From a virus (taxonomy: Duplodnaviria > Heunggongvirae > Uroviricota > Caudoviricetes), in IMG/VR virus record IMGVR_UViG_2703719368_000016: 6,434 bases of DNA, one strand, 5' to 3'. Both the position numbers and the translations under genes were made by a program. The notes below the pieces were generated by a model. That model ran no database searches and was not told the DNA's origin. It worked only from the letters and a program-made list of their open reading frames with translations. Position 1 is the stretch's first letter. Each line of letters opens with the position of its first letter. Shown here piece by piece: positions 1 through 6,434 of this stretch.

Positions 1-402
1 TCGCTCACTACAGCTTATCCAATCATCCAGAGTTACCGGATAGTTGGTTGACGTTTCCGAGATTTCCCGAAAATTATTGGTTGACGAACCCTTTTTTTCC
101 CGAAAGTTTCCAGCCTGAAGCATGGCGGCGCTGTCTGGCGGGGCAGCATATAGCGGCACGTATATTTCCGGTTCCTTATCAGCACCGGGTTGCTCTTCCA
201 GTGAGAATGTCTTTCCGGTAAATCGATTCATATAAAGCACGGGCTCTGCTTCCAGCGAAGCCTGAGCAACAAGGGCCAGTGCTAAATCCAACTCAATTGC
301 CTCGAGAGAATTTTTGAATGCTGTCTGTTTTACTGCAAATTTCATCGCCTTTACATTTTCACTAACATGACTGATTAACTGCTCTTTTGTAAAAGTGGTC
401 AT
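1..402 (-). CDS. Hypothetical phage protein, N-terminal 134 codons only (ORF runs off the window start)
   Basis: Minus-strand ATG at 402-400 preceded by AAGGAG (revcomp of 408-413); open in frame to position 1 with no stop (MTTFTKEQLISHVSENVKAMKFAVKQTAFKNSLEAIELDLALALVAQASLEAEPVLYMNRFTGKTFSLEEQPGADKEPEIYVPLYAAPPDSAAMLQAGNFREKKGSSTNNFREISETSTNYPVTLDDWISCSER...). Absent from the ORF track because it is truncated. No family recognised. Confidence 0.45.
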   Translation of the reverse strand, partial: MTTFTKEQLISHVSENVKAMKFAVKQTAFKNSLEAIELDLALALVAQASLEAEPVLYMNRFTGKTFSLEEQPGADKEPEIYVPLYAAPPDSAAMLQAGNFREKKGSSTNNFREISETSTNYPVTLDDWISCSER

Positions 403-458
403 CTCATTCTCCTTTGATGCGAATGCCAGCGACAATTGAAGCCTGATAGCTAATTCAC

Positions 459-854
459 TCACAGTACCGCCTCCTGAAAATTGCCCTGATAGAACGCCAG
501 TACACGCAGCATAACTTCACTCTTCCGGCACTCGCCACAGATTATGTTCTGTTGTCTGTCGTAGCGGCGTATTTCTCCGTCTGGTAACTTTCGAATCAAT
601 GTCTGGTCGGTTGCTTTCTCCGCTGCCTTACGCCATACGCGATACACCTGTTCTGATGTAAAAACACCGTATTTACCGGGCATGTATAAATCGCCACAAG
701 CCAGTACATCCACAAGGCAACGTCTGACTGAATGCCAGCCTGCTCCCGTCGCTCTCTCCAGTTGTGATATCGTCATGCGTTCATTTTTGCGTACCAGCCC
801 GATAATTCGGGCCTTCAGTTCTTCACGCTGTTCGTGTGTAAAAGGTTTCGCCAT
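459..854 (-). CDS. Hypothetical small protein (131 aa) with a probable helix-turn-helix segment
   Basis: Complete ORF with ATG at 854-852 and GGAGG RBS (revcomp of 861-865), 15 nt after the stop of the upstream gene. The segment MTISQLERATGAGWHSVRRCLVDVL has an HTH-like pattern. Function unknown. Confidence 0.5.
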   Translation of the reverse strand: MAKPFTHEQREELKARIIGLVRKNERMTISQLERATGAGWHSVRRCLVDVLACGDLYMPGKYGVFTSEQVYRVWRKAAEKATDQTLIRKLPDGEIRRYDRQQNIICGECRKSEVMLRVLAFYQGNFQEAVL

Positions 855-869
855 AAGCGCCTCCGGCTA

Positions 870-1639
870 TCACTTTTCCGATACAACACGGCGGGAAGAA
901 TCAGTAATCTGTCGAACAATATCCCGGTGCTTGTTCAGCTCCCGCAGCGCGGCGCAGACTCGCTCCCACTTCTGAACATCACTTTTCGCCCTGCGCAGCG
1001 CCAGGTTTGCCCTGCGCAGGGACGGAAAAATCAGCTCATCTGCTTGCGTTTCGGTAAACGATGGCAACGGCTGCACAATGTCCGCCACAGTTTCTGTTTT
1101 AATTTCTTCCTGTGTTGCGGCTTCCCGGACTGGTAACGCAGCACCTGCTGGCTGAGGAAAGGCCTTACCATCATTTTTCGTTACCGGCGCGGCTTTCGGA
1201 TCTGCTGGTAAATTACCCCCCGACATGCAGTAACGAAATTTACCGTTCTGATTAACGCGTGCCAGCCGCCCCGTTGCGGTTACCACCGCCAGCGTGGAAG
1301 CAACCTTGCGAGTACTGACGCCGAACTTACCCGCCAGTTCCTCACACGTTTTAGCACCATCCTGACCGATAAACTCAACCATCATGTCTGCGGTAACTTT
1401 TGGAGCGACCTCTTCGGTTACCACATCCGGCGCTTCAGGTTGTAGTGCCTGCCCTTCGGTTACCCCGGCTTCACCTTCGACAGCCAGAAACCAGGTGTGA
1501 CCCGTTTTATCAACAACGCCATTTTTTTGAGTTCCCACAGTTCGTTAAGAACTTCTTCACGGCTGATATCAAGCCGCGCCGCCAGTTCAACAGAATTGGC
1601 TTTTCCCATCGCTTTCAGTGCATGCAATACAGTTTCCAT
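870..1639 (-). pseudogene. Tandem winged-helix protein gene interrupted by a frameshift at an A7 run (7 T on plus strand, 1522-1528); could be a sequencing error, a pseudogene or a slippage site
   Basis: ATG at 1639-1637 with GAGGT RBS gives [39 protein letters not shown], then reads on to a TAA at 1462-1460 (59 aa). The -1 frame continues [18 protein letters not shown]... for 217 codons to the stop at 872-870 (track ORF 870..1538, which begins at a GTG with no RBS). One extra A would fuse them into a 256-aa protein with a well-formed winged helix across the junction ([20 protein letters not shown]). A second wH-like unit follows (MMVEFIGQDGAKTCEELAGKFGVSTRKVASTLAVVTATGRLARV). Confidence 0.5.
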
Positions 1640-1664
1640 CGAAAATTTACCTCGTCAAAAATTC

Positions 1665-2405
1665 TCACATACCCTGACGTCCAACGTTTGACCGCCAGCT
1701 CTCCCAGTTAAAATTCACCCAACGACCACCATTCATGGTCATACGGTCCATCACCCGATCTCCGAGGAGTGTGCTCATCGCTGCGTGATTCAGGTTCGTC
1801 AGCATTCCGACACTACGCATCGAAGCCGTTCTGCGGTCGACTATCTGGTTCAGCGTGACCTGCTCGTTGCGCGTATCCCGCTGCATGCCAATTTCATCAA
1901 GGACCAGAAGGTCAACTCCACAAAGCTCCTGTAAAAATTTTTCCCCGGACTGGCCGTTGTCGTAGCCGTCATGCAACACGCTCATGACATCGGACACGGT
2001 GACGATAATCACGCTTCTCCCCTTCGCCATCAGCCGATTGCCAATCGCTGCTGCCAGGTGATTTTTACCGGTACCAGGTTTACCGCTGAACACGAAGTTT
2101 GTACATCCGGTCATCAATTCATCGGCAATGGATTTCGCCTGGCTCAGAGCATGGCGCTGACCGTCGTTCTGCACCCGGTAGTTCCCGAATGAGCACTTCC
2201 TGTGAAGCGGCTGGATGCCCGCACGGTTCAGGATTTTTTCAACCCGCACCTGATGATTCAGGCGGTTAATCTCCTCGCTGCGTTTTCGTCCTTCAGCAAG
2301 TTGCCATTCCCGCCACTCCTCCACCGTCCGGTACGGTGGAACCGCCCCCTGTGGTGCAAGTCTGCGAATACGTTCAAGAACCCCAACTGCCGCAATGTTT
2401 TTCAT
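1665..2405 (-). CDS. DnaC-like helicase loader ATPase (AAA+, IstB/DnaC family), 246 aa; same size and position as Rac YdaV
   Basis: Walker A GKPGTGKNHLAAAIG and Walker B DLLVLDEIG are present. ATG at 2405-2403 with AGGGGG RBS overlapping the upstream stop; only 6 nt separate it from the initiator gene. This is the usual initiator-then-loader order of lambdoid replication modules. Confidence 0.85.
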   Translation of the reverse strand: MKNIAAVGVLERIRRLAPQGAVPPYRTVEEWREWQLAEGRKRSEEINRLNHQVRVEKILNRAGIQPLHRKCSFGNYRVQNDGQRHALSQAKSIADELMTGCTNFVFSGKPGTGKNHLAAAIGNRLMAKGRSVIIVTVSDVMSVLHDGYDNGQSGEKFLQELCGVDLLVLDEIGMQRDTRNEQVTLNQIVDRRTASMRSVGMLTNLNHAAMSTLLGDRVMDRMTMNGGRWVNFNWESWRSNVGRQGM

Positions 2406-2411
2406 GACACG

Positions 2412-3374
2412 TCACCCCCTGAATCCCGGCGGTATTTCAGTGTCCGGTTCAGAAATGTGATTCACGCAACGCTGCGCGGGCGAACGCCCCAGGCGGATAA
2501 CCAGTTCATCCCATTTTTCCCGGAGTTTTGCCGGACTCATGATGTTTTTTACCCAGAACGAATCCCGCTGGAGACGCCCAAACATTTCACAAATTTGTCT
2601 GTGAGTTCTGCCATCCAGCATCCGCATTGTCCGCACGTCATTGGCCCATGCAGTCCAGTTGGGTTCTTTCGGTCTCGTGATCTCGCCATCATCGCTGGCC
2701 GCCTGCTCGTAAAGACTCACGATTCGTCCCCAGATCCACTGTGCGCACACCAAATCTTCCTGACTTCCCCACTGGCGTTTTTTCGCACTGAACACAACCG
2801 CGTCAGGGTGTCGGGTTAAAAAATTCTGTTCAGCCGTCTGCGGGTCCGGTTGCGAAGCGTCCGGACAAGAAGATCTTTTATCTGACGGATCAGGTTTTAA
2901 TACTGACGGATCGGGGTCAATCATCGCCCCCCTAATCGGCAGTTTGTTATCAACAGTTGATCCATCAAAATTTGACGGGTCAACCGTTGAGGGGGCAATA
3001 TTTGACGGGTCAACTGTTAACGGGTCATTTTTTGCCGGGCTAATTTTTCTTTTCGGTTTATATGACTCACGCGCCGCCGCAGCAGCTGCTTCGAGTTTTT
3101 CCACATTAAGCCGATAGATATTGCTTACATTACGCCCACCGACCTTACGCTCTTCCTTCGTCAGCCAGCCCTCTTTCGCCAGTTCTGCAATAGCCGATTT
3201 CACTGTGGATTCACTTCTTGCACCGATCTGACGCCGGATAGTTTCAATGGCAGGCCATGACACGCCCTCGTCATTGCTGTAGTCTGCAAGACGGGCCATA
3301 ACCGCCACCCTGGATAAGATCATGCCGGTGAAGGCGCACCCTTCCCAGACAAGACCATGAAGCTTGCTGCTCAT
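2412..3374 (-). CDS. Phage replication initiator: N-terminal winged-HTH DNA-binding domain, Pro/Asp/Ser-rich linker, C-terminal domain
   Basis: The track ORF starts at GTG 3389; I prefer ATG 3374 (MSSKLHGLVW...) with GGGGG just upstream. The N-terminus (LADYSNDEGVSWPAIETIRRQIGARSESTVKSAIAELAKEGWL) matches the HTH pattern of phage replication initiators. The linker encodes TVDPSNIAPSTVDPSNFDGSTVDNK from the DNA iterons. It sits directly upstream of the DnaC-like gene. Confidence 0.75.
   Translation of the reverse strand: MSSKLHGLVWEGCAFTGMILSRVAVMARLADYSNDEGVSWPAIETIRRQIGARSESTVKSAIAELAKEGWLTKEERKVGGRNVSNIYRLNVEKLEAAAAAARESYKPKRKISPAKNDPLTVDPSNIAPSTVDPSNFDGSTVDNKLPIRGAMIDPDPSVLKPDPSDKRSSCPDASQPDPQTAEQNFLTRHPDAVVFSAKKRQWGSQEDLVCAQWIWGRIVSLYEQAASDDGEITRPKEPNWTAWANDVRTMRMLDGRTHRQICEMFGRLQRDSFWVKNIMSPAKLREKWDELVIRLGRSPAQRCVNHISEPDTEIPPGFRG
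2950..3066. repeat. Origin-like iteron cluster with adjacent AT-rich tract, embedded in the initiator gene linker
   Basis: Three near-palindromic sites TCAACnGTT(G/A)A at 2950-2960, 2980-2990 and 3010-3020, exactly 30 bp apart. Two 20-bp direct repeats TTTGACGGGTCAAC(C/T)GTT(G/A)A at 2971-2990 and 3001-3020. An AT-rich stretch follows at 3028-3066 (ttttttgccgggctaatttttcttttcggtttatatg). This parallels lambda ori lying inside gene O. Confidence 0.5.
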
Positions 3375-3396
3375 AAAACCCCCGAACACCGTGCTT

Positions 3397-3822
3397 TTAG
3401 TGCATCACCACAGCATTCCCTGCCGGGCCGCCGCGATTCATCTGGTCATACAAAACAACCGCTGACGCAACAAAATCATCGACATCCTTCACCAGCCGAT
3501 CCCTCCGTTCGACGATCTCACGGTAATATTCAGAACTGTGGCTGCGCATACGGGCCACCAGCAAAGGCGGCATCGCCTTTTCGATCGCCGGTAACAGAGC
3601 CTGCATTTTTTCAACAGCATCAGGGGTGTCTTTATCCAGCCAACGGAAAATTTTCTGGGTATTACGGGCCAGGGCTTCCGGATGGCTGTCGTCATACAGT
3701 TCCGGGAACGTCATTCCCAGCTCGAAATACGCTTTGGTAATTTTCGCAGCCGGTACTTTTTCGCCGTCCGGATGCGCCCAGACATTCATCGCCATGCGGA
3801 TGTGTTCATGCTTGATTTTCAT
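3397..3822 (-). CDS. ydaT: YdaT-like protein (reported CII-like regulator of Rac/CP-933P-type prophages), 141 aa
   Basis: Complete ORF, N-terminus MKIKHEHI..., C-terminus ...VVMH. Its ATG (3822-3820) overlaps the stop of the upstream Cro-like gene in an ATGA arrangement. Family assignment is from memory of YdaT and from gene order, not from a search. Confidence 0.6.
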   Translation of the reverse strand: MKIKHEHIRMAMNVWAHPDGEKVPAAKITKAYFELGMTFPELYDDSHPEALARNTQKIFRWLDKDTPDAVEKMQALLPAIEKAMPPLLVARMRSHSSEYYREIVERRDRLVKDVDDFVASAVVLYDQMNRGGPAGNAVVMH

Positions 3823-4121
3823 GAATCAACTCCATCAGATAAGCATGCACTACAATCACCTTCAGCATGAACTACATGTGTTTGCCCCAAACGAATGCCG
3901 CTCGCATACTCAGGCCAAATAAGCTCCCAATCATGGGGTCGTAGCTCCGCCCTACTTACTTGGCCTTCCGTCGCAGATTCGATCATAAGGGCGCGGGTTG
4001 GAGATATAGCTGTTCGTCCAGACGCCATTTGCGATAAGTAAGATGGCGATACACCAAGTCTGGCCGCGAATTTCTTAGCATCACCAACCCTTAATGATTT
4101 AATAAACTCTTTTAATGTCAT
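3819..4121 (-). CDS. ydaS: Cro-like HTH regulator of the YdaS family, 100 aa
   Basis: ATG at 4121-4119 with GAGGAAGG RBS (revcomp of 4123-4130). HTH segment AKKFAARLGVSPSYLSQMASGRTAISPTRAL followed by an ELRPhDW motif as I recall for YdaS. Divergent from the repressor gene across an operator-rich intergenic region. Confidence 0.65.
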   Translation of the reverse strand: MTLKEFIKSLRVGDAKKFAARLGVSPSYLSQMASGRTAISPTRALMIESATEGQVSRAELRPHDWELIWPEYASGIRLGQTHVVHAEGDCSACLSDGVDS

Positions 4122-4218
4122 ACCTTCCTCGGTTTAGTGTTTTTTTGCGAGTTTAGTGTTTAATAAACCATTAAGTCAAGTATTTGCTTGTTTAGTGATT
4201 ACTAAAGATAATTACCAC
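4122..4218. promoter_or_regulatory. Divergent promoter/operator region (OR-like): PR-like promoter for the cro-like operon, PRM-like promoter for the repressor, repeated operator motifs
   Basis: GTTTAGTG at 4132-4139, 4151-4158 and 4190-4197. Near-palindromes GTTTAATAAAC (4158-4168) and TTTAGTGATTACTAAA (4191-4206). Minus strand: TTGACT (plus 4174-4179), 18-nt spacer, TAAACT (plus 4150-4155). Plus strand: TTGCTT (4184-4189), 17-nt spacer, GATAAT (4207-4212), ending 6 nt before the repressor ATG. Confidence 0.55.
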
Positions 4219-4590
4219 ATGCAAAAAAAAGAAATTCGCCGTTTACGTCTCAAGGAGTGGTTTAAAGATAAAACTCTGCCACCCAAAGAGAAGAGCTACC
4301 TATCTCAACTAATGAGTGGGAGAGCCTCGTTTGGAGAAAAGGCTGCCAGAAGAATAGAGCAAACATACGGGATGCCGGAAGGGTATCTGGATGCGGAATA
4401 CGCAGAACAACCGGGGGGTTCTCCACCACATGCAGGGTTAACGTCTAATCAACTGGAATTATTGCAGATTTTTTCAGCCTTCCCTGAGGATGAGCAACGC
4501 CAGATAATCAGCGAGTTAAAGCAGAAAAAAGAATCAATGGAAGATCTCATAGCGAGATGGATTGCGGCGCAAAAATGCCGCCGCGCCTGA
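4219..4590 (+). CDS. paaR2: CI-like prophage repressor, short form (123 aa) with N-terminal HTH and no S24 peptidase domain; PaaR2-like
   Basis: The track ORF starts at GTG 4156 with no RBS; I prefer ATG 4219 (MQKKEIRRLRLKEWF...), which sits right after a -10-like GATAAT and so implies a leaderless mRNA. HTH: KEKSYLSQLMSGRASFGEKAARRIEQTYGMPEGYLD. The C-terminal part is too short for a LexA-type autocleavage domain. Symbol given from recalled architecture, unverified. Confidence 0.65.
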   Translation: MQKKEIRRLRLKEWFKDKTLPPKEKSYLSQLMSGRASFGEKAARRIEQTYGMPEGYLDAEYAEQPGGSPPHAGLTSNQLELLQIFSAFPEDEQRQIISELKQKKESMEDLIARWIAAQKCRRA

Positions 4591-4610
4591 GTTATAAAAC
4601 CGGAGGAAAC

Positions 4611-4802
4611 ATGAATAGAGCCCTTTCACCAATGGTTTCTGAATTTGAAACCATTGAACAAGAAAACAGTTACAACGAATGGCTGCGTGCGAAAGTAGCA
4701 ACGAGCCTTGCAGATCCGCGCCCAGCAATTCCCCATGACGAAGTTGAGCGCAGAATGGCAGAACGCTTTGCTAAGATGCGCAAGGAACGGAGCAAGCAGT
4801 AA
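4611..4802 (+). CDS. paaA2: Type II antitoxin, 63 aa, partner of the ParE-family toxin; PaaA2-like
   Basis: ATG 4611 with GGAGG RBS at 4602-4606 (the track's 4557 start would overlap the repressor gene and has no RBS). Product MNRALSPMVSEFETIEQENSYNEWLRAKVATSLADPRPAIPHDEVERRMAERFAKMRKERSKQ. Stop TAA 4800-4802 lies one nucleotide before the toxin ATG. Confidence 0.75.
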   Translation: MNRALSPMVSEFETIEQENSYNEWLRAKVATSLADPRPAIPHDEVERRMAERFAKMRKERSKQ

Positions 4803-4803
4803 A

Positions 4804-5082
4804 ATGTTACCCGTGTTATGGCTTGAAAGCGCAGATACCGACCTAGATGATATAACTAGTTATATTGCTCGTTTCGACATAGATGCGGCTGAACGCTTAT
4901 GGCAGCGATTAAGGGGTTGTGTGCTGCCGTTATCCGAACATCCGTATTTATACCCACCAAGCGACAGAGTACCTGGCTTGCGTGAGATTGTAGCCCACCC
5001 TAACTATATAATTCTATACCGCGTAACAACATCAAGCGTTGAAGTAGTAAACGTGATCCACGCAAGACGCCAGTTTCCCTAA
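4804..5082 (+). CDS. parE2: ParE/RelE-superfamily toxin, 92 aa; ParE2-like
   Basis: ATG 4804, in frame with track ORF 4708..5082 but placed immediately after the antitoxin stop. The C-terminus ...HPNYIILYRVTTSSVEVVNVIHARRQFP matches the conserved ParE/RelE motif (Y-R-I/V ... I-x-R-V/I-x-H-x-R-R). The small, tightly coupled antitoxin-then-toxin order is typical of type II TA operons. Confidence 0.8.
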   Translation: MLPVLWLESADTDLDDITSYIARFDIDAAERLWQRLRGCVLPLSEHPYLYPPSDRVPGLREIVAHPNYIILYRVTTSSVEVVNVIHARRQFP

Positions 5083-5100
5083 CTTTCACTACCAATAGAA

Positions 5101-5147
5101 ACATAACAACCGCAACGACTTTATCAAAAGCGTTGTGTTTGTTATGT
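5101..5147 (+). terminator. Long imperfect hairpin just after the toxin stop; possible terminator or insulator between the repressor-TA operon and the downstream promoter
   Basis: ACATAACAACCGCAACG (5101-5117) pairs with CGTTGTGTTTGTTATGT (5131-5147): a 17-position stem with one mismatch and one G-U, 13-nt loop. It is followed by cccgcgGTTTAGTTTTTA, U-rich but not a canonical adjacent U-tract. Confidence 0.35.
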
Positions 5148-5151
5148 CCCG

Positions 5152-5200
5152 CGGTTTAGTTTTTACTTGACTTAAGTTTAATGTTTATTAAACTAAAAAT
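5152..5200 (+). promoter_or_regulatory. Second operator/promoter copy (OL/PL-like, or PdicB-like) directing rightward transcription
   Basis: TTGACT (5167-5172), 16-nt spacer, TAAACT (5189-5194): the same hexamers as the PR-like promoter. Operator-like GTTTAGT at 5154-5160 and GTTTATTAAAC at 5183-5193, the latter the exact reverse complement of GTTTAATAAAC at 4158-4168. The block 5175-5194 matches 4150-4169 at 17 of 20 positions. Confidence 0.45.
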
Positions 5201-5489
5201 ACCAACCCACCCCGCCCCACAGAACGCAGGGAAATACTTCGAGTTACCCGGCAGTGGTCAGGGGTTAAGTAGCCAGCCCGAGGCGTATGAACATGACGGC
5301 AGGGTTCAACTTTAATAACTATGCAGCAGGTTTTTGTTCCGCTACCCCGGCGTTAAGGGGAAACAGAGGGTTTCTCAGTGGGCGAAGTCAAACATCAGAA
5401 TGGAAGGCATCCCGGGATCGGCAAAGAAGCAGCAATGGCGCTTTATATTGACATCAGCGCCATTGCAGGACAGGTAAGAGTTATCAGAG

Positions 5490-5565
5490 NNNNNNNNNNN
5501 NNNNNNNNNNNNNNNNNNNNNNNNNNNNNNNNNNNNNNNNNNNNNNNNNNNNNNNNNNNNNNNNN
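5490..5565. other. Run of 76 N (assembly gap or masked sequence)
   Basis: Literal n characters in the sequence. Any ORF crossing it is unreliable and true spacing is unknown. Confidence 0.99.
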
Positions 5566-5719
5566 TTAAAGGATGTGTCAAAGACTTCGCCACCACATTC
5601 TGGGCAAGAAAACTTGATTGTATTCATAACCAATTTCCTCTCGAGTAACAGACCCCTCAGAGGATACCACCTCGCCTGACGTGGTTAAAAGCAGGCAACG
5701 CTAACCACAAGGAGCCGAC

Positions 5720-5938
5720 ATGCAGAAACGAGAACCCGTCATCATCGCGCCAGACTATACCGATGATGAACTTTATGAGTGGATGCACCAGAAAATTAAT
5801 GCAGCGCAGGATCTGAAATGGGCCAATGAAGCCAGGGCTAAGCAGGCTGAAAATCTGTCCGCTCTGGAGCAGGATATCACCAATCTGGAAAAAGCAGCGG
5901 CATTAAGCATTGCCAGAATGATTACATACCCGCGTTAA
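5720..5938 (+). CDS. Small acidic, probably helical protein (72 aa); positionally like the small ORFs (ydfC-like) that precede dicF in Qin-type dicB operons
   Basis: ATG 5720 with AAGGAG RBS at 5708-5713. Product MQKREPVIIAPDYTDDELYEWMHQKINAAQDLKWANEARAKQAENLSALEQDITNLEKAAALSIARMITYPR. It lies between the PL-like promoter and the DicF-like RNA. The ydfC comparison rests on size and position only. Confidence 0.55.
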   Translation: MQKREPVIIAPDYTDDELYEWMHQKINAAQDLKWANEARAKQAENLSALEQDITNLEKAAALSIARMITYPR

Positions 5939-6279
5939 TAGCTAACCAACGAAGCTAAGGTTGGTAATTAAGGAGTTCTCCACGGGTGAGGTGGAGTGCG
6001 TGCGCCGGACACGGGTGAGCATACGGCACTGACAGTTTACTGAAAGGATATTTCCCTGAAAAGTCAGACCATAACGCGAAAGCGCACGGCGAGGTAGCTG
6101 GTTCATAGATAGCCTGTCGTTAAATTTTCGTCGACCGTGCGCTTCCGGTTGTGGCAATCCGCGAAATGGCGCGGCGGTAAGTATGGAGGGGTTATTCCTT
6201 CCCCCGTTGAGGACACCGGGTTGTCAGGTTGACCATACGCTTAAGTGACAACCCCGCTGCAACGCCCTCTGTTATCAAT

Positions 6280-6337
6280 TTTCTGGTGACGTTTGGCGGT
6301 ATCAGTTTTACTCCGTGACTGCTCTGCCGCCCTTTTT
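6280..6337 (+). ncRNA. dicF: DicF-like small RNA with intrinsic terminator (the prophage sRNA known to repress ftsZ translation)
   Basis: The sequence TTTCTGGTGACGTTTGGCGGTATCAGTTTTACTCCGTGACTGCTCTGCCGCCCTTTTT matches my recollection of E. coli DicF. GGCGG (6295-6299) pairs with CCGCC (6327-6331), followed by a T5 run at 6333-6337. Context fits: downstream of a repressor-controlled rightward promoter and a small ORF. Ends are approximate. Confidence 0.55.
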
Positions 6338-6434
6338 AAAGTGAATTTTGTGATGCGGTGAATGCGGCTGAGCGCACGCGGAACAGTTAAAACCAAAAAC
6401 AGTGTTATGGGGGGATTCTCTGTATCCGGCGTTA

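Follow-up and report, generated by a model that had tools for sequence, protein, structure and literature searches.

The window analyzed here, a DNA stretch of 6,434 nt, consists of two blocks (1–5489 and 5566–6434) that were each 100% identical to many E. coli O157:H7 chromosomes. The blocks flank a run of 76 N (5490–5565), which stands for 162 nt of real sequence. Over the left part of the window, the annotated O157:H7 record TR01 (locus L001) showed 99.1% identity. The window corresponds to the immunity and early-left part of a cryptic lambdoid prophage of E. coli O157:H7, named CP-933P in EDL933 and Sp12 in Sakai. The two prophages are described as identical in PMC8630535.

The gene order was taken from the annotated O157:H7 record. 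Its minus strand carries, in order, hokD, genes for DUF551, DUF977 and DUF1627 proteins, a DnaC-like ATPase, an O-like HTH protein, ydaT, and ydaS. After ydaS, the plus strand encodes a 123-aa regulator, a RelB/PaaA2-type antitoxin, and a ParE-family toxin. Past the toxin gene lie a minus-strand ECs_2282 gene and then, on the plus strand, ydfC, dicB, ydfD, an exonuclease gene (exo), xis, and int. In this record, IS1203 is inserted in exo, a frameshift affects the DUF1627 gene, and int is either frameshifted or incomplete. The right end of the prophage adjoins rspA', ynfA, ynfB, and speG. Both the insertion site, next to ynfA/speG, and the right-hand gene order are the same as in the Qin cryptic prophage of K-12.

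Immunity region and promoter PL933P

The CI-like repressor gene paaR2 occupies 4219–4590 (+) and begins with a leaderless ATG at 4219, where the published primer F-PaaR2-Eco matches the window. It is annotated as a RefSeq CDS, and its product matched PHROG 5736 ('transcriptional regulator', E 1e-38). Against the NCBIfam DicA model, PaaR2 gave a weak C-terminal match of 27.8 bits, below the cutoff of 101. The genes paaA2 (4611–4802, +) and parE2 (4804–5082, +) follow directly and in the same orientation, and both are RefSeq CDSs with Pfam matches to PaaA2 (69.9 bits) and ParE_toxin (59.5 bits). The original prediction had placed a ParE toxin–antitoxin pair in the repressor operon, and this pair is the antitoxin and toxin of the published paaR2-paaA2-parE2 unit, which are co-transcribed with the repressor gene (PMC8630535). 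On the divergent strand, ydaS (3819–4121, −) and ydaT (3397–3822, −) were assigned by the Pfam families YdaS_toxin/HTH_3 and YdaT_toxin. PaaR2, YdaS, and YdaT have been described as CI-like, Cro-like, and CII-like, respectively, and the locus as bistable (PMC8630535). A structure of YdaT from the CP-933P immunity region is also available (PMC9986795).

The promoter scan located a plus-strand promoter, TTGACT-16-TAAACT, at 5167–5194, with the −35 hexamer at 5167–5172 and the −10 hexamer at 5189–5194. The same hexamers occur in the divergent minus-strand PR-like site at 4179–4150, which corresponds to PR933P. GTTTAGT-type repeats were found at 4132, 4151, and 4190 (OR) and again at 5154 and 5176 (OL). 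A hairpin with 22-nt arms lies at 5101–5147, after the parE2 stop codon. The primers of the published PL933P-gfp reporter matched the window exactly at 5083–5103 (+) and 5179–5200 (−), so that the cloned PL933P/OL segment is 5083–5200 (+). Since the gfp side is at 5200, the tested promoter fires rightward, toward ydfC and dicF. The PL-like promoter that had been proposed upstream of dicF is thus the published PL933P.

According to Jurenas et al. 2021 (PMC8630535), either PaaR2 or YdaS represses the PL933P-gfp fusion by a factor of about 100. PL933P has three OL operators and shares identical −35 and −10 elements with PR933P (PMC8630535). The immunity region of that study is the same locus as the window, without any sequence difference, and the published PL933P and paaR2 primers are exact. 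The paper makes no mention of DicF. Its authors could assign no function to the ORFs downstream of PL933P, and the operon link between PL933P and DicF is therefore unstated there.

DicF between ydfC and dicB

The segment at 6280–6337 (+) reads TTTCTGGTGACGTTTGGCGGTATCAGTTTTACTCCGTGACTGCTCTGCCGCCC, followed by TTTTT. The whole window was scanned against 4227 Rfam families at gathering thresholds, and a single match was returned, RF00039 DicF, at 6281–6332 (+). The match scored 76.7 bits (gathering score, 48 bits; E 3.6e-16, cmscan), spanned model positions 1–52 of 52, and had maximal posterior probabilities throughout. All Rfam consensus pairs are canonical in this copy, and the score in the unmasked O157 record was the same as in the window. 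The comparison with RF00039 had been named beforehand as the check on a DicF-like sRNA at 6280–6337, and the proposed location proved exact. In the alignment with dicF of the K-12 MG1655 Qin prophage (b1574), 53/53 bases and the T5 tail were identical, and the annotated b1574 coordinates place the 53-nt dicF at 6280–6332 (+). As judged from these sequence comparisons, the resemblance to DicF is far beyond chance.

DicF is the classic prophage-encoded sRNA that blocks the cell-division gene ftsZ. The DicF of the window is a canonical, ordinary copy of this already described sRNA.

The GGCGG...CCGCC stem and T5 run on which the prediction was built are present at 6295–6299, 6326–6330, and 6333–6337. 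In the predicted fold, a 14-nt single-stranded 5' part (6281–6294) leads into a terminator hairpin and its U5 tail (6295–6337, +), in which GGCGGUA pairs with UGCCGCC around an inner CAGUU/GACUG helix. The folding energy was −15.9 kcal/mol (z = −2.0 against dinucleotide shuffles), and the MFE and centroid structures agree. By this model, the hairpin and U5 constitute a Rho-independent 3' end. By analogy with this sRNA class, they would also be expected to form the Hfq-binding module, and Hfq binding of DicF is reported in PMC5069750.

A GC stem ahead of T5 is also the shape of terminators in general, and the fold z-score of −2.0 is by itself modest. Both points would suit a plain intrinsic terminator of ydfC whose likeness to DicF is a coincidence. 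This reading is refuted by the covariance-model match, full-length at E 3.6e-16, and by the base-for-base identity with the characterized K-12 DicF, which includes the 14-nt single-stranded 5' part. The conserved synteny with dicB also stands against it, and we give it practically no chance of being correct.

The genes around dicF are those of a dicBF locus. The 72-aa ORF upstream of dicF, at 5720–5938 (+), was recognized in the prediction by its length and is ydfC: it is annotated in RefSeq as 'protein YdfC', matched PHROG 1744 (E 1e-39), and in alignments has a single residue changed relative to K-12 YdfC. A dicB gene had been expected just outside the window. It starts 73 nt beyond base 6434 in a 100%-identical O157 record, where its product matched the NCBIfam model CellDivInhibDicB with 132.7 bits (cutoff, 100), and ydfD (DUF1482) comes next. 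The 976-nt ydfC-dicF-dicB block and its Qin counterpart share 99% identity as the mean column identity reported by the tool, or about 97% by pairwise mismatches. The ydfC ATG marks the exact point from which the locus is homologous to Qin. Upstream of it, K-12 Qin has ydfA and ydfB, whereas both are absent from the CP-933P locus, which carries ydfC alone and in their place a segment with ECs_2282 and a 119-aa ORF. In K-12, dicF has the same 53 nt and T5, the same place between ydfC and dicB, and the same RNase III stems.

These stems lie on both sides of dicF. The ydfC-dicF spacer (5939–6279, +), about 97% identical to K-12, is structured in MFE folds (z = −2.5) and would belong to the precursor portion of the polycistronic RNA. 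A long, interrupted stem is predicted within it (6069–6089/6135–6154). In K-12, RNase III cuts the polycistronic dicBp RNA to yield a 190-nt species, and RNase E generates the 5' end of the 53-nt form (bioRxiv 10.1101/2023.04.14.536235). From the length of the 190-nt product, its 5' end would fall at about 6143–6148, in the 3' arm of the modeled stem. On the other side, the fold of the unmasked O157 record gave a perfect 21-bp long-range stem, with the 5' arm at 6340–6360 (+) and the predicted 3' arm outside the window, at would-be positions 6471–6491, just before the dicB RBS. The 3' end of K-12 DicF has been attributed to its own terminator or to RNase III (bioRxiv 10.1101/2023.04.14.536235 and PMC5069750, which describes the 72-nt form). 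By the fold model, the 21-bp stem is the likely RNase III site for the 72-nt DicF 3' end (about 6351) and for processing of the dicB 5' UTR. When 2 kb around dicF were scanned against Rfam with permissive settings, only a sub-threshold STnc100 match and noise appeared besides DicF. The STnc100 match covers the dicF-dicB spacer and scored 39.7 bits (gathering score, 47).

Pairing of DicF with ftsZ was also computed. The RNAduplex energy of DicF 4–53 with ftsZ −28..+26 was −38.5 kcal/mol, compared to −32.6 ± 4.4 kcal/mol for shuffles, in a crude test that ignores intramolecular structure. This energy was equaled by 100/1000 shuffles and is not significant in such a test. The ftsZ step therefore rests on published compensatory mutations, which proved pairing of the identical DicF with ftsZ and pykA through its 3' part and with xylR through its 5' part, as given in PMC5069750. 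Hfq is needed for pairing with all three targets (PMC5069750).

The dicF 57-mer was found in 3969/5426 complete E. coli genomes, at up to 7 places per genome. Multi-copy DicF in EHEC was reportedly treated by Melson and Kendall in 2019. In PMC5069750 (Balasubramanian et al. 2016, Fig. 9), multiple dicF or partial dicBF loci are described in different O157:H7 prophages, and the CP-933P copy is one of these. The arrangement with ydfC alone upstream of dicF corresponds to the 'parts of the dicBF locus' already noted there for O157:H7. Four DicF copies in Sakai and 86-24 are cited in the review PMC7873438. In the text consulted from these two papers, individual EHEC copies are not assigned to immunity switches. 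Since the dicF copies are identical in sequence, the DicF signal in published Northern blots cannot be traced to CP-933P.

Predicted transcription from PL933P toward dicF

The RNA starting at about 5199 would first include a non-coding early-left leader (5199–5363, +), which shows about 95% identity across immunity types and ends in a 28-nt island, GTTCCGCTACCCCGGCGTTAAGGGGA. This leader of about 165 nt remains conserved next to unrelated repressors, promoters, and operators, and it is common to Qin-type and Rac-type phages that differ in immunity. The island GTTCCGCTACCCCGGCGTTAAGGGGA is invariant and is the only part of the leader that K-12 Qin shares. When IMG/VR was scanned with the island, at least 120 stretches were returned, and about 125 island occurrences in 131 sequences were usable. 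Among the IMG/VR matches listed, the full leader was present in 78/110 unique sequences, and DicF in 66/88 loci with enough downstream sequence. Rac-like phages have the same leader of about 165 nt as the window, and there it precedes sieB/kil instead.

Coding and structural readings of the leader were both considered. A coding function was rejected, as the variable part contains indels whose lengths are not divisible by three. The single-sequence fold of the leader was no better than shuffles (z = +1.03). RNAalifold on 23 representatives found compensatory changes in 0/33 pairs (covariation term, −0.08), and the permissive scan of 2 kb around dicF gave no Rfam match for the leader. A structured RNA of the nut/put type was rejected as unsupported by fold, covariation, or Rfam. 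The leader and its 28-nt island may be a so far undescribed cis-acting element of early-left transcription, e.g., a Rho or antitermination site.

The segment between the leader and ydfC contains two overlapping candidate genes. The minus-strand gene (5490–5627, −) is annotated in RefSeq as an 'ECs_2282 family putative zinc-binding protein' of 66 aa with two CxxC pairs, and it matched NCBIfam NF047912 with 57.4 bits (cutoff, 37). It lies antisense to the PL transcript and mostly under the 76-N run (5490–5565). On the plus strand, a 119-aa candidate ORF starts at GTG 5378 with a plausible RBS, overlaps ECs_2282 in antisense, and gave a narrow PHROG match only. In the overlap, four variants differed by only 4 substitutions, 3 of which affect third positions of minus-frame codons. 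In one strain, however, the minus ORF is broken by a nonsense codon, and the plus ORF is the one annotated by PGAP.

By analogy with dicBp, the PL933P transcript would run about 1.08 kb to dicF and on to dicB. This continuity is supported by the dicBp analogy, by the lack of competing signals, and by the intact processing stems. In simple scans of the window and the unmasked O157 record, no plus-strand terminator-like site was found between PL933P and dicF, and no sigma-70-like plus-strand site other than PL933P was found from parE2 to dicB. The main uncertainty for the continuity is the leader segment that differs from Qin and carries the annotated convergent gene. ECs_2282, which lies between PL933P and ydfC on the minus strand, could interfere with PL transcription or terminate it. 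Rho-dependent termination within the roughly 520 nt before ydfC may also act against continuity. The literature searched contained no paper that explicitly runs the PL933P transcript to dicF, and none that links PaaR2 to DicF.

The absence of sigma-70-like sites also bears on whether dicF is an independent unit, transcribed from a promoter of its own in the ydfC-dicF spacer and outside PaaR2 control. Such a promoter would fit the build-up of DicF in stationary phase and low oxygen, when the prophage repressor is presumably present, and an older K-12 study, mentioned in bioRxiv 10.1101/2023.04.14.536235, reportedly suggested an extra promoter upstream of dicB. The scans of the window and unmasked record gave no such plus-strand site between PL and dicB, and an internal dicF promoter was rejected on this basis. 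For K-12, whose spacer shows about 97% identity to this one, the DicF 5' ends seen by primer extension and Northern blotting were RNase III and RNase E products of the dicBp transcript, and an internal promoter for DicF was not found (bioRxiv 10.1101/2023.04.14.536235). We regard independent transcription of dicF as very improbable.

It could further be argued that dicF is intact but silent in this prophage. PL933P would then stay repressed, or its transcript would end in the leader/ECs_2282 segment, and EHEC DicF would come from the other copies. The prophage is indeed defective, with IS1203 in exo, a frameshifted or partial int, and a frameshifted DUF1627 gene. Even low levels of PaaR2 repress PL933P, a convergent gene is annotated between PL and ydfC, and the C-rich 5' leader could, speculatively, serve as a Rho entry site. 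However, the ydfC-dicF-dicB-ydfD block is intact, with its close match to K-12 (99% mean column identity, about 97% pairwise), as are both RNase III stems around dicF, and no plus-strand terminator-like site was found before dicF. PL933P is strong once unrepressed, and since the locus is bistable, some cells would derepress it. The exact parE2-PL-ydfC-dicF arrangement is moreover kept in 371 complete genomes. A silent copy is therefore considered unlikely, though less so than a separate dicF promoter.

The preferred reading is that 6280–6337 is the dicF of CP-933P/Sp12, one of several DicF copies in the O157:H7 lineage, located inside an early-left (PL) operon that is switched by PaaR2/YdaS, and we assign it a probability of about 0.9. 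The original prediction of a Qin-type early-left cassette is supported, with DicF, ydfC, dicB, and PL933P all in place, and it arrives again at published biology; the continuity of the transcript to dicF is drawn from the dicBp analogy.

Proposed control of DicF and DicB by the PaaR2/YdaS switch

The operon can be compared to known repressor-controlled early-left operons. PL933P with PaaR2 is functionally equivalent to the DicA-repressed promoter of K-12, in a different immunity type: K-12 Qin has the repressors DicA/DicC, and CP-933P has PaaR2/YdaS and different operators. The dicBF operon of Ragunathan et al. 2023 (bioRxiv 10.1101/2023.04.14.536235) follows the same logic, in which a CI-like repressor switches off the PL-equivalent promoter for the DicF/DicB RNA. 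Compared to that DicA/DicC/Rem-controlled operon, the present locus has an immunity module of the CP-933P type, with a ParE-family toxin–antitoxin pair inside the repressor operon.

The PL operon of lambda (kil) and the Rac early-left operon (kilR) are likewise repressor-controlled, and their division inhibitor also lies upstream of exo/bet-type genes and xis/int. The lambda and Rac inhibitors are protein only (Kil/KilR), without an sRNA, and lambda has N/nutL antitermination. In the CP-933P window, no N gene or nut-like element was recognizable by the Rfam scan and the leader covariation test.

The ydfC-dicF segment was present in 52 phage records, including Tritos (in which DicF is annotated), mEp460_ev081, and Stx2a-phage/PPompW records. 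The same leader-ydfC-dicF block was found in other genomes downstream of genes for a LexA-family repressor, a different HTH repressor, or a HigB toxin. Such varied repressors in front of the block represent normal lambdoid mosaicism.

The following course of events is proposed for CP-933P. In the repressed state, PaaR2 would be made from PRM933P along with the PaaA2-ParE2 addiction pair, and its binding to the OR and OL operators would keep PR933P and PL933P off. When the bistable PaaR2/YdaS switch flips, PL933P would fire. Its RNA would carry, in order, the conserved leader of about 165 nt, a short variable segment, ydfC, the structured spacer, dicF, dicB, ydfD, exo, xis, and int. RNase III would cut this polycistronic RNA in the long stems on either side of dicF, and RNase E at the AU-rich sequence immediately before UUUCUGG. 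The 3' end of DicF would be produced by its own terminator or, in read-through transcripts, by RNase III. The 3' part of the resulting Hfq-dependent DicF of about 53 nt would pair with the ribosome-binding regions of ftsZ and pykA, and the 5' part with xylR. In EHEC, this sRNA would also open the pchA leader. Read-through would lead to DicB, which together with MinC would block FtsZ-ring formation. For EHEC, the review PMC7873438 reports that DicF activates pchA and affects stx2.

Coupling of the ParE pair with the DicF/DicB module had been predicted to give two opposed host-toxic outputs, one made in lysogeny and one on derepression. The architecture agrees with this view, but the first output does not. 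ParE2 is a latent addiction toxin that is neutralized by PaaA2 in the repressed state, according to PMC8630535, and is not a toxic output made in lysogeny. The authors proposed that paaA2-parE2 stabilizes the immunity region (PMC8630535).

DicF, the dicBF arrangement, PL933P, and paaR2-paaA2-parE2 have all been published already. The step from PL933P to DicF and DicB, made by analogy, is small and obvious and does not amount to a discovery. The recovery of DicF, dicB, a PL-type promoter, and the ParE pair from the letters alone, without database tools, is mainly a positive control. What is new is limited to the explicit placement of one EHEC DicF copy behind the experimentally characterized, bistable PL933P. 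This linkage provides a ready-made, copy-specific hypothesis, in which the CP-933P switch would feed into DicF/DicB output and DicF-dependent phenotypes.

DicF and DicB modulate cell division, metabolism, and phage resistance, and in EHEC also the expression of LEE virulence genes. We suggest only tentatively that the bistable PaaR2/YdaS switch is a direct, copy-specific input to the DicF/DicB output in EHEC, and consider this possible rather than probable. If it is true, the subpopulation in the YdaS state would fire PL933P and make DicF and DicB. The same flip would stop paaA2-parE2 synthesis, with a risk of ParE2 activation. Heterogeneity of a prophage switch would then be coupled to how cells divide, take up sugar, and resist phages (ManXYZ), and to the pchA/LEE virulence expression that depends on DicF.

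Conserved leader of the PL transcript

The non-coding leader of the PL933P transcript (5199-5363, + strand), approximately 165 nt long, was conserved across prophages. Its identity was 87-99% among Qin-type and Rac-type prophages and 74% in phage pPE4, and counterparts were located in the compared loci L003 (2501-2670), L009 (2501-2660), and L010 and L011 (2501-2655 in both). Conservation began approximately at the transcription start, and the prophages having this leader carry repressors and operators unrelated to one another. The 3' end of the leader is an invariant 28-nt island, GTTCCGCTACCCCGGCGTTAAGGGGA, which occurred alone, without the rest of the leader, in K-12 Qin (L002, approximately 3470-3497). 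Indels in the leader were out of frame, no covariation was seen in its representative alignment, and an Rfam search with it returned no match. Rho might load at the leader's C-rich 5' end.

Open reading frames and spacers around ydfC and dicF

The N-run at 5490-5565 is not a length-preserving mask, because its 76 N stand for 162 nt of real sequence in O157 genomes, in which both flanks were 100% identical. The masked DNA is part of a minus-strand gene annotated as "ECs_2282 family putative zinc-binding protein", the product of which has 66 aa and two CxxC pairs. This putative gene lies in the segment 5378-5627, where a 119-aa + strand ORF covers it completely on the opposite strand. The + strand ORF begins with GTG at 5378, just after GAGGG, and sits where ydfA would be. 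In one strain, E2865, the minus-strand ORF was broken by a nonsense codon, and PGAP called the + strand ORF instead.

RefSeq also annotates a 54-aa hypothetical protein, WP_001331716.1 (5942-6106, - strand), within the structured spacer between ydfC and dicF; this annotation, which overlies the DicF precursor region, is probably spurious. Beyond dicF, the dicF-dicB spacer and dicB start matched the full STnc100 model of Rfam at 39.7 bits (E 1.2e-6), below the gathering threshold of 47. This match covers 6330-6434 and runs past the window end (7765-7974 in L001, the unmasked O157 record). A perfect 21-bp stem, pairing 6340-6360 with would-be positions 6471-6491, closes the spacer. A simple reading is that STnc100 may represent the dicB 5' UTR of Salmonella prophages, homologous to this one.

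Different immunity modules ahead of PL

PaaR2 (4156-4590, + strand) and DicA are dissimilar repressors outside a weak C-terminal match, which spans the last 48 residues of NCBIfam's DicA model and scored 27.8 bits, below the cutoff of 101. This match hints at a relationship between the oligomerisation regions of PaaR2 and DicA.

An inverted repeat (5101-5147) with 22-nt arms, 82% complementary, and a 3-nt loop separates the stop codon of parE2 (5082) from the OL/PL region. It has no T-run and is included in the published PL933P reporter fragment. The paaR2-paaA2-parE2 transcript could end at this repeat, or a protein could bind there.

In other E. coli, the leader-ydfC-dicF block stands behind different immunity modules, which end in a gene for a HigB-family toxin or carry a repressor of the LexA family or a further HTH repressor, and in strain E08 a ydfA-type (DUF1391) gene follows paaR2-paaA2-parE2. 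These arrangements were seen in the loci L004 (2120-2983), L005 (1-120), L006 (1-31) and L007 (1-49). TA pairs that close the repressor operon directly ahead of PL seem to be a recurrent arrangement.
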